Assembly (NCBI RefSeq): GCF_003334385.1
Contig: NZ_QOWN01000201.1
From: Escherichia coli
GTDB taxonomy: Bacteria; Pseudomonadota; Gammaproteobacteria; Enterobacterales; Enterobacteriaceae
DNA: 329 bases
Reading direction: 5' to 3' (one strand)
The position numbers were made by a program, and so were the translations under genes. The notes under the pieces were generated by a model. The model did no database searches. It saw nothing but the letters and a program-made list of their open reading frames with translations, and was not told where the DNA came from. Below are positions 1 through 329 of this stretch, one piece after another (position 1 is the stretch's first letter; each line of letters begins with the position of its first letter).

Positions 1-159
1 TCTGAAGGTTGTTTTGAAATTGGTGTCACTATCAGTAACCCTGTATTTACTGAAGATGCCATTAACAAGAGAAAACACGAACGGGAGTTATTAAATAAAA
101 TATGCATTCTTTCAATGCTGGCCCGTTTACGTCCGATACAAAAAGGATGTGCACAATGA
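1..159 (+). CDS. 3' portion of a small ORF (52 sense codons plus TGA stop; 5' end outside window); hypothetical protein, possibly a Kil-like prophage early-region peptide (tentative)
   Basis: Frame 1 is open from position 1 to the TGA at 157-159, while frame 3 carries stops (TGA 3, 15, 51; TAA 36, 63, 96) over the same stretch. Conceptual translation: SEGCFEIGVTISNPVFTEDAINKRKHERELLNKICILSMLARLRPIQKGCAQ*. The stop overlaps the downstream start (ATGA), which is typical of real coupled genes. The C-terminus is basic and amphipathic. The Kil-like call rests only on vague recollection of short basic helical Kil peptides and of small genes of this kind sitting beside DUF1482 genes in lambdoid prophages; no alignment was run. 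Confidence 0.55.
   Translation, partial: SEGCFEIGVTISNPVFTEDAINKRKHERELLNKICILSMLARLRPIQKGCAQ
143..147 (+). promoter_or_regulatory. Shine-Dalgarno (AAGGA) for the downstream ORF
   Basis: AAGGA at 143-147 sits 8 nt upstream of the ATG at 156, which is canonical spacing. It lies inside the last codons of the upstream ORF, as expected for coupled genes. Confidence 0.6.
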
Positions 160-329
160 ATACAGCATTTGCACTTGTTCTGACAGTTTTTCTTGTTTCC
201 GGAGAGCCAGTTGATATTGCAGTCAGTGTTCACAGGACAATGCAGGAGTGTGTGACTGCAGCAACCGAACAGAAAATTCCCGGTAACTGTTACCCGGTCG
301 ATAAAGTTATTCACCAGGATAATAACGAA
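156..329 (+). CDS. 5' portion of a DUF1482-family (YebW-like) small protein; continues beyond the 3' end of the window
   Basis: ATG at 156-158 is preceded by AGGA (144-147) with an 8-nt spacer, and frame 3 is open from 99 to 329 with no stop. Translation (58 codons): MNTAFALVLTVFLVSGEPVDIAVSVHRTMQECVTAATEQKIPGNCYPVDKVIHQDNNE. From memory, E. coli YebW (DUF1482) shares the pattern FALVL.V...G...DI.V.V..T...C.......I..G.C.P....I, including both cysteines (QEC and GNCYP here). The family call is recalled, not searched. Confidence 0.8.
   Translation, partial: MNTAFALVLTVFLVSGEPVDIAVSVHRTMQECVTAATEQKIPGNCYPVDKVIHQDNNE
218..260 (+). repeat. Inverted repeat TGCAGTCA (218-225) / TGACTGCA (253-260) with 27-nt spacer; potential mRNA stem-loop
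   Basis: Read directly: the two 8-mers are exact reverse complements. TGCAG occurs three times (218-222, 241-245, 257-261). Lies wholly within the downstream ORF; the large loop makes a stable hairpin uncertain. Confidence 0.35.
282..294. repeat. Perfect 13-bp palindrome GGTAAC-T-GTTACC (imperfectly extended to 279-297)
   Basis: Read directly: 282-287 GGTAAC, 288 T, 289-294 GTTACC are exact reverse complements. The flanks CCC/CGG extend the symmetry with one mismatch per side. It overlaps codons G-N-C-Y-P of the downstream ORF. The symmetry is certain; any function is unknown. Confidence 0.5.

Follow-up and report, generated by a model that had tools for sequence, protein, structure and literature searches.

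The conserved dicB-ydfD stop/start overlap of a Qin-like prophage in Escherichia coli and its probable role in translational coupling

The 329-nucleotide stretch of Escherichia coli DNA analysed here, which we refer to in its entirety as the window, is identified by its sequence as the junction between dicB and ydfD in a Qin-like lambdoid prophage, situated in the early-left dicBF operon. The overlap between the end of dicB and the beginning of ydfD is real and conserved, and it is an ordinary arrangement that has already been annotated, in a cryptic prophage that ranks among the most thoroughly studied. Judging from the sequence of this junction, termination at the dicB UGA followed by reinitiation at the ydfD AUG probably couples the translation of the two genes. 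The genes, the overlap, the shared operon, and the antagonistic phenotypes of the two products are all annotated and published already. Since both the overlap and the link in function are thus known, the coupling is the part that we infer here, and the abutment of DUF1482 genes to varying small open reading frames (ORFs) across the family is one modestly new point.

The window is 100% identical to the corresponding sequence of E. coli ABU 83972 and of many other E. coli chromosomes, and it is matched in 4001 of 5426 complete E. coli genomes. At an identical site, the RefSeq annotation names the genes dicB and then ydfD, the latter as a DUF1482 family protein. From this identity to annotated loci, it follows that the window encodes residues 11-62 of DicB and 1-58 of YdfD. 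In the identical locus that we used for flanking sequence (L001), dicB lies at 5971-6159 and encodes 62 amino acids, and ydfD lies at 6156-6347 and encodes 63 amino acids. The Qin prophage of K-12 MG1655 carries the same locus (dicB, b1575, 1649609-1649797; ydfD, b1576, 1649794-1649985), with the same ATGA junction, the same AAGGA Shine-Dalgarno sequence, and the same neighbors, namely a dicA-like repressor gene, ydfABC, DicF, and an exonuclease gene. It is identical to the window at 316 of 329 nucleotides (96%), and the 13 substitutions are accompanied by four amino acid changes in YdfD and about six in DicB. In the genomes that match the window exactly, the prophage looks more complete, with the exonuclease gene, xis, and int intact, whereas K-12 Qin is a remnant in which ydfE is disrupted by IS2.

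Frame 1 of the window is open from base 1 and runs to a TGA stop codon at positions 157-159 (...AAA GGA TGT GCA CAA TGA). This is the 3' part of dicB (positions 1-159, plus strand; codons 11-62 and the stop codon), as indicated by its translation (SEGCFEIGV...QKGCAQ, followed by the stop), by its matches to DicB profiles, and by the RefSeq annotation. The full-length upstream protein, taken from L001, matches the Pfam DicB family (PF05358) over residues 1-62 of 62 with an E value of 4.7e-38, and the upstream protein scores 130.6 bits against NCBIfam NF049927, for which the cut-off is 100. The flanking sequence also supplies a plausible start and ribosome-binding site for this frame, an ATG with a GAGGA 7 nt upstream. 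Lambda Kil and Rac KilR are, like DicB, small early-left proteins of phages or prophages that block division of the host. Lambda kil is not known to have a DUF1482 gene behind it. Kil differs from DicB in that a Pfam scan of the upstream protein, even at E <= 10, returned DicB as the sole family and no match to Kil, and DicB is a division inhibitor that acts through MinC and not directly on FtsZ (PMC8835842). Thus, the original prediction, which had proposed a Kil-like division inhibitor as the upstream product, was right about division inhibition and wrong about the Kil family. Given that the DicB of the window is 90% identical to K-12 DicB, it would be expected to inhibit the FtsZ ring in the same MinC-dependent manner.

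Frame 3 is opened by the ATG at positions 156-158 (ATG AAT ACA GCA...) and remains open through the end of the window. This is the 5' part of ydfD (positions 156-329, plus strand; codons 1-58 of 63), recognized by its translation (MNTAFALVLTVFLVSGEPVD...), by its profile matches, and by its identity to the K-12 gene. The downstream protein matches Pfam DUF1482 (PF07358) with an E value of 4.1e-25 and phrog_1092 with an E value of 2e-37, and the YdfD of the window is identical at 59 of 63 residues to K-12 YdfD, which is annotated as "lysis protein." It carries the two invariant cysteines of the YdfD/DUF1482 family, C32 and C45, and the hydrophobic N-terminus FALVLTVFL. Both dicB and ydfD are therefore real genes. 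For the activity of YdfD, we take the results of Masuda et al. 2016 as relayed by PMC8835842, PMC10448788, and PMC6832061. As given in PMC8835842, K-12 YdfD is a 63-amino-acid lysis protein, and the lysis that it causes is blocked by co-expression of either DicB or SulA. Since DicB or SulA prevents YdfD lysis, the lysis depends on cell division. YdfD binds IspG, and YdfD lysis is relieved by over-expression of ispG or by HMBPP (PMC8835842). The functional link between the division inhibitor and the DUF1482 protein, which had been offered originally as speculation, is thus upheld insofar as DicB abolishes YdfD lysis in the account relayed by PMC8835842.

The start codon of ydfD (156-158) and the stop codon of dicB (157-159) overlap by 4 nt in the tetranucleotide ATGA (positions 156-159, plus strand). 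A Shine-Dalgarno sequence for ydfD, AAGGA, lies at positions 143-147 on the plus strand, within the Lys-Gly codons of dicB and 8 nt 5' of the ATG. The overlap, its coordinates, and the embedding of the Shine-Dalgarno sequence in the upstream coding sequence had all been predicted and are borne out by the letters; the description of the overlap as a +1 shift was loose, the downstream frame being -1 relative to the upstream frame. For the AAGGA paired with the 3' end of 16S rRNA, the predicted duplex has an energy of -6.0 kcal/mol, which places it among roughly the best 7% of positions across these regions. Another ATG in the ydfD frame precedes the annotated start by three codons (positions 147-149, plus strand) and would give a protein beginning MCTMNT..., which is how one Shigella protein cluster (P0063) is annotated. 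This ATG is probably not a functional ydfD start, as it has no correctly spaced Shine-Dalgarno sequence and is missing from the PPompW-type junctions and from those of Klebsiella and Citrobacter. Two rare database proteins carry DicB and DUF1482 domains in one chain, one (P0124) by a 1-nt frameshift fusion via the ATG-147 frame and the other (P0138) by an internal deletion. Each occurs once and is probably the product of mutation or sequencing error.

The two genes have been shown to lie on one polycistronic mRNA. The dicBF transcripts include a 1,608-nt ydfABC-dicFB-ydfD species, with no other promoters in the region (PMC10448788), and dicB and ydfD have already been published as one operon "with partial overlap." The order of the operon is a dicA-repressed promoter, ydfABC, the dicF sRNA, dicB, and ydfD. 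At L001, we found the DicF sRNA (Rfam RF00039, 76.7 bits) at 5745-5796, 175 nt upstream of dicB, with a DicA-like helix-turn-helix (HTH) repressor and ydfA/B/C further upstream and the exonuclease gene, xis, and int downstream, which is the setting of a dicBF-type operon in a lambdoid prophage. On the plus strand of the window, there are no promoter-like or terminator-like sites, and thus no terminator-like site between dicB and ydfD, nor are there plus-strand promoter-like sites across L001 5650-6500. An internal ydfD promoter within dicB was rejected on these grounds. An Rfam scan of the window gave no structured RNA match at E <= 1.

Outside the window, a palindrome, GTTAACTGGTTAAC, is located at L001 5907-5934, about 50 nt 5' of the dicB ATG. 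After it comes a hairpin, CCTGG-AGGCA-CCAGG, also located between DicF and dicB, and the arrangement is kept in over 160 of the DicB loci collected; the palindrome itself falls in an in-frame ORF extension upstream of dicB. At a different locus (L338), it is found about 940 nt upstream of dicB with an antirepressor-like gene inserted between the two, and this separation indicates that the palindrome does not belong to the start region of dicB. A processing site and a nut-like element are two roles that it could have. On the other side of the gene pair, a terminator-like hairpin, TGCCAGCAATGGCA, with a T-rich tail lies at L001 6385-6398, 38 nt past the ydfD stop codon. The same hairpin is shared with a PPompW-type phage (L003), and its position fits the 1,608-nt transcript (PMC10448788).

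Co-directional gene pairs spaced at -8 to +6 nt make up 707 of 2,987 such pairs in E. coli (24%), with -4 as the commonest distance, and among the closely spaced pairs about 70% specify proteins that are not partners in a complex (PMC10666635). With 24% of E. coli pairs so spaced, one ATGA by itself is not beyond chance. Because a single junction is such weak evidence, we examined its conservation across DUF1482 loci, which were collected from IMG/VR viral contigs via four different queries and from phage genomes, locating in each the start of the DUF1482 gene and the nearest upstream ORF. We observed a stop/start overlap (-4 or -1 nt) with a Shine-Dalgarno sequence in 326 of 329 DUF1482 loci, spelled ATGA in 182 loci, TGATG in 72, GTGA in 70, and TAATG in 2. 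When duplicates were removed, the overlap was found in 187 of 190 distinct 395-nt junction regions. The three exceptions are an assembly with an N inside dicB, in which the junction still reads ATGA; a 1-nt insertion in an A-run; and yebW, a paralogue on the K-12 chromosome (L091 3622-3813). This last is a standalone DUF1482 gene that lies 104 nt after yebV and beside pphA, with no DicB and no stop/start overlap, which indicates that members of the DUF1482 family can be expressed from a start region of their own. As read from these loci, the conservation of the overlap across junction spellings and upstream genes exceeds what is expected by chance.

The same association is seen when the search begins with the upstream protein. 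For divergent DicB proteins from the protein database, a DUF1482 gene follows directly in every context examined, at -10, -4, -1, or +1 nt, and in 20 of 20 DicB phage records a DUF1482 gene is adjacent. The two families therefore do occur together, as had been predicted, and with a good start and ribosome-binding site upstream as well, we found neither an upstream frame without a plausible start nor two families that never co-occur, either of which would have spoken against the pairing. A scan of species-representative genomes using the DUF1482 alignment gave one locus, in E. albertii, as the peptide patterns used were too specific, and yielded no cross-species statistics. A GGA-containing Shine-Dalgarno sequence lies 7-9 nt 5' of the ydfD start in every junction type, and its energies rank within the top 0.1-8% when compared with background positions. 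The GGA core is kept at an equal spacing in nine divergent DicB-YdfD junctions that differ from one another in codon phase and in the amino acids encoded. The retention of the Shine-Dalgarno sequence in different phases and residues suggests that it and the abutment have been maintained through sequence turnover.

The ORF that precedes DUF1482 is not always the same. Besides DicB type 1, which is that of the window, we found a DicB type 2, whose C-terminus has diverged and whose junction is mostly GTGA; phrog_22279, a family of 37-41 amino acids in Klebsiella phages, which itself overlaps the preceding ORF by 4 nt; and, in Citrobacter/Salmonella-type phages, either phrog_3722, of 66 amino acids, or a 42-amino-acid ORF. 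The 66-amino-acid family has no Pfam match. The Klebsiella partners of 37-41 amino acids were considered as remote DicB homologues and rejected (hhalign probability of 0.02%). At L338 1501-1877, a type-2-like DicB is joined to a type-1 YdfD through a TGATG junction, a combination that indicates recombination of the modules at or near the stop/start overlap. These arrangements fit translation of DUF1482 in tandem with whichever small early-left gene precedes it.

Early-left genes can be packed very tightly. In the Klebsiella phage loci L085 and L086 (2143-2692), three small ORFs are chained by 4-nt overlaps (2254-2394, 2391-2504, and 2501-2692), comprising an ORF of 46 or 83 amino acids, the 37-amino-acid phrog_22279, and DUF1482, and a 51-amino-acid ORF follows 8 nt later. 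In the Citrobacter/Salmonella-type loci (L172-L251), the unrelated 66-amino-acid (...AGTH) and 42-amino-acid (...TLH) ORFs share their last ~10 nt, CACTGATGG, which suggests that a recombining DUF1482 module may carry its start region along with it, including the final codons of the upstream gene.

In the mechanism that we favor, ribosomes would terminate at the dicB UGA and reinitiate at the overlapping ydfD AUG, aided by the Shine-Dalgarno sequence. Synthesis of YdfD would then take place mainly while DicB is being translated and would scale with DicB translation, and YdfD would not build up in the absence of the division block that neutralizes it. Given that the DicB division block neutralizes YdfD lysis, coupling would provide a sensible safety order. 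Coupling of this type in E. coli requires a distance of -8 to +10 nt, for which the upstream gene's final 15 nt are enough, and it collapses past ~20 nt (PMC10666635). The dicB-ydfD pair has the corresponding sequence features, being on one transcript, spaced at -4 nt, and equipped with a Shine-Dalgarno sequence inside the 3' end of the upstream gene. When five native E. coli ATGA pairs were tested, four were found to be coupled by termination-reinitiation, and the fifth, bioBF, showed de novo initiation despite its ATGA overlap (PMC6728339). The coupled pairs hyfHI, astDB, ydbH/ynbE, as well as menDH (Huber et al. 2019, PMC6728339; 2023, PMC10666635) share with dicB-ydfD the co-direction, the -4 overlap, and the Shine-Dalgarno sequence within the final 15 nt of the gene upstream. 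Those pairs rest on stop-codon and Shine-Dalgarno mutants, whereas the likeness of dicB-ydfD to them is drawn from the sequence, and in many coupled ATGA pairs the two products belong to the same complex, a partnership not known for DicB and YdfD. In the papers searched that name both dicB and ydfD, translational coupling is not mentioned.

Coupling might also be brought about if the Shine-Dalgarno sequence or the AUG of ydfD were hidden in a hairpin. We rejected this as a conserved mechanism. The consensus fold has an energy of -0.11 kcal/mol and shows no conserved RNA structure, and positions 100-200 of the window fold with a z-score of -1.0, no better than shuffled sequences. Likewise, near-identical E. 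coli variants differ widely in the predicted probability that the ydfD AUG is unpaired, with values between 0.11 and 0.88. With no conserved RNA structure to hide the ydfD start, termination-reinitiation is the likeliest coupling mechanism. Every variant keeps a recognizable Shine-Dalgarno sequence of its own, so independent initiation is possible.

Independent initiation is central to a different reading, which we consider unlikely but deserving of real weight, namely that the overlap reflects genome compaction in phage early operons and that ydfD is translated from its own Shine-Dalgarno sequence with little effect of dicB translation. The retention of a correctly spaced Shine-Dalgarno sequence by all variants and the lack of a conserved occluding structure agree with this reading, as do the close spacing of neighboring small ORFs (-4, +1, or +8 nt, as in the Klebsiella phage chain and at ydfA/ydfB, spaced at +1), the interchange of upstream partners among unrelated families, the separate start region of yebW, and the precedent of bioBF (PMC6728339). 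Compaction is harder to reconcile with the finding that the abutment survives changes both of partner and of spelling (ATGA, GTGA, TGATG, TAATG, and TAAgATG), whereas the spacing between ydfD and the gene after it varies from +8 to +95 nt. The E. coli-type Shine-Dalgarno sequence of ydfD is also only moderate in strength (-5.4 to -6.0 kcal/mol), and four of the five native ATGA pairs tested proved to be coupled (PMC6728339).

The original prediction had likened the two genes to stoichiometrically linked partners such as a toxin and its antitoxin. Read in this way, YdfD would be a toxin and DicB its cognate stoichiometric antidote, made first from the same mRNA, an interpretation that has lost ground and to which we give very little credence. 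It would account for the abolition of YdfD lysis by DicB co-expression (Masuda 2016, via PMC8835842), for the small size of both proteins (62 and 63 amino acids) and the 4-nt overlap of their genes, and for the presence of DUF1482 next to dicB in all 20 DicB phage records. However, SulA rescues cells from YdfD equally well in the account given by PMC8835842, which points to the division block and not to binding, so that the effect of DicB on YdfD would be indirect. Over-expressed DicB is itself toxic (PMC10448788), and the reported target of YdfD is IspG (PMC8835842). Moreover, the exclusive cognate partners of a type II toxin-antitoxin system are not seen here: DUF1482 is found with the same kind of overlap behind at least three upstream families that are unrelated to DicB (phrog_22279, phrog_3722, and the 42-amino-acid ORF), and it stands alone as yebW. 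The reassortment of DicB and YdfD types, together with the changing partner, argues against a co-evolving pair of this kind, and PADLOC models match neither protein.

Termination-reinitiation at the dicB-ydfD overlap, the reading that we prefer, has a parallel in an unrelated phage. In work attributed to Berkhout et al. and dated 1987, the lysis gene of MS2 was reportedly switched on when translation terminated at the coat gene that overlaps it. There, too, translation of a lysis gene depends on ribosomes having completed an overlapping frame upstream, so that production of the lysis protein is both limited and timed. MS2 differs in being an RNA phage with another overlap geometry, with no Shine-Dalgarno-assisted ATGA junction, and with unrelated proteins.

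Coupling of dicB and ydfD, if it occurs, would matter for the question of how a lysis protein is kept harmless in a cryptic prophage. It would also mean that constructs in which dicB is deleted or replaced could alter the expression of ydfD. A broader proposal, which we regard as quite improbable, is that DUF1482 lysis genes across the lambdoid phages of Enterobacteriaceae are obligately slaved by overlap to the preceding small early-left ORF, which is DicB in Escherichia, and that the unrelated partners in Klebsiella and in Citrobacter/Salmonella-type phages are functional analogues of DicB, acting as division blockers or as other antidotes. If this were true, the two genes would form a conserved "block first, lyse later" module in which the upstream partner has been swapped repeatedly. 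The abutment of DUF1482 genes to small upstream ORFs of varying family also gives an inexpensive way to find candidate host-takeover or division-inhibitor peptides in Klebsiella, Citrobacter, and Salmonella phages.
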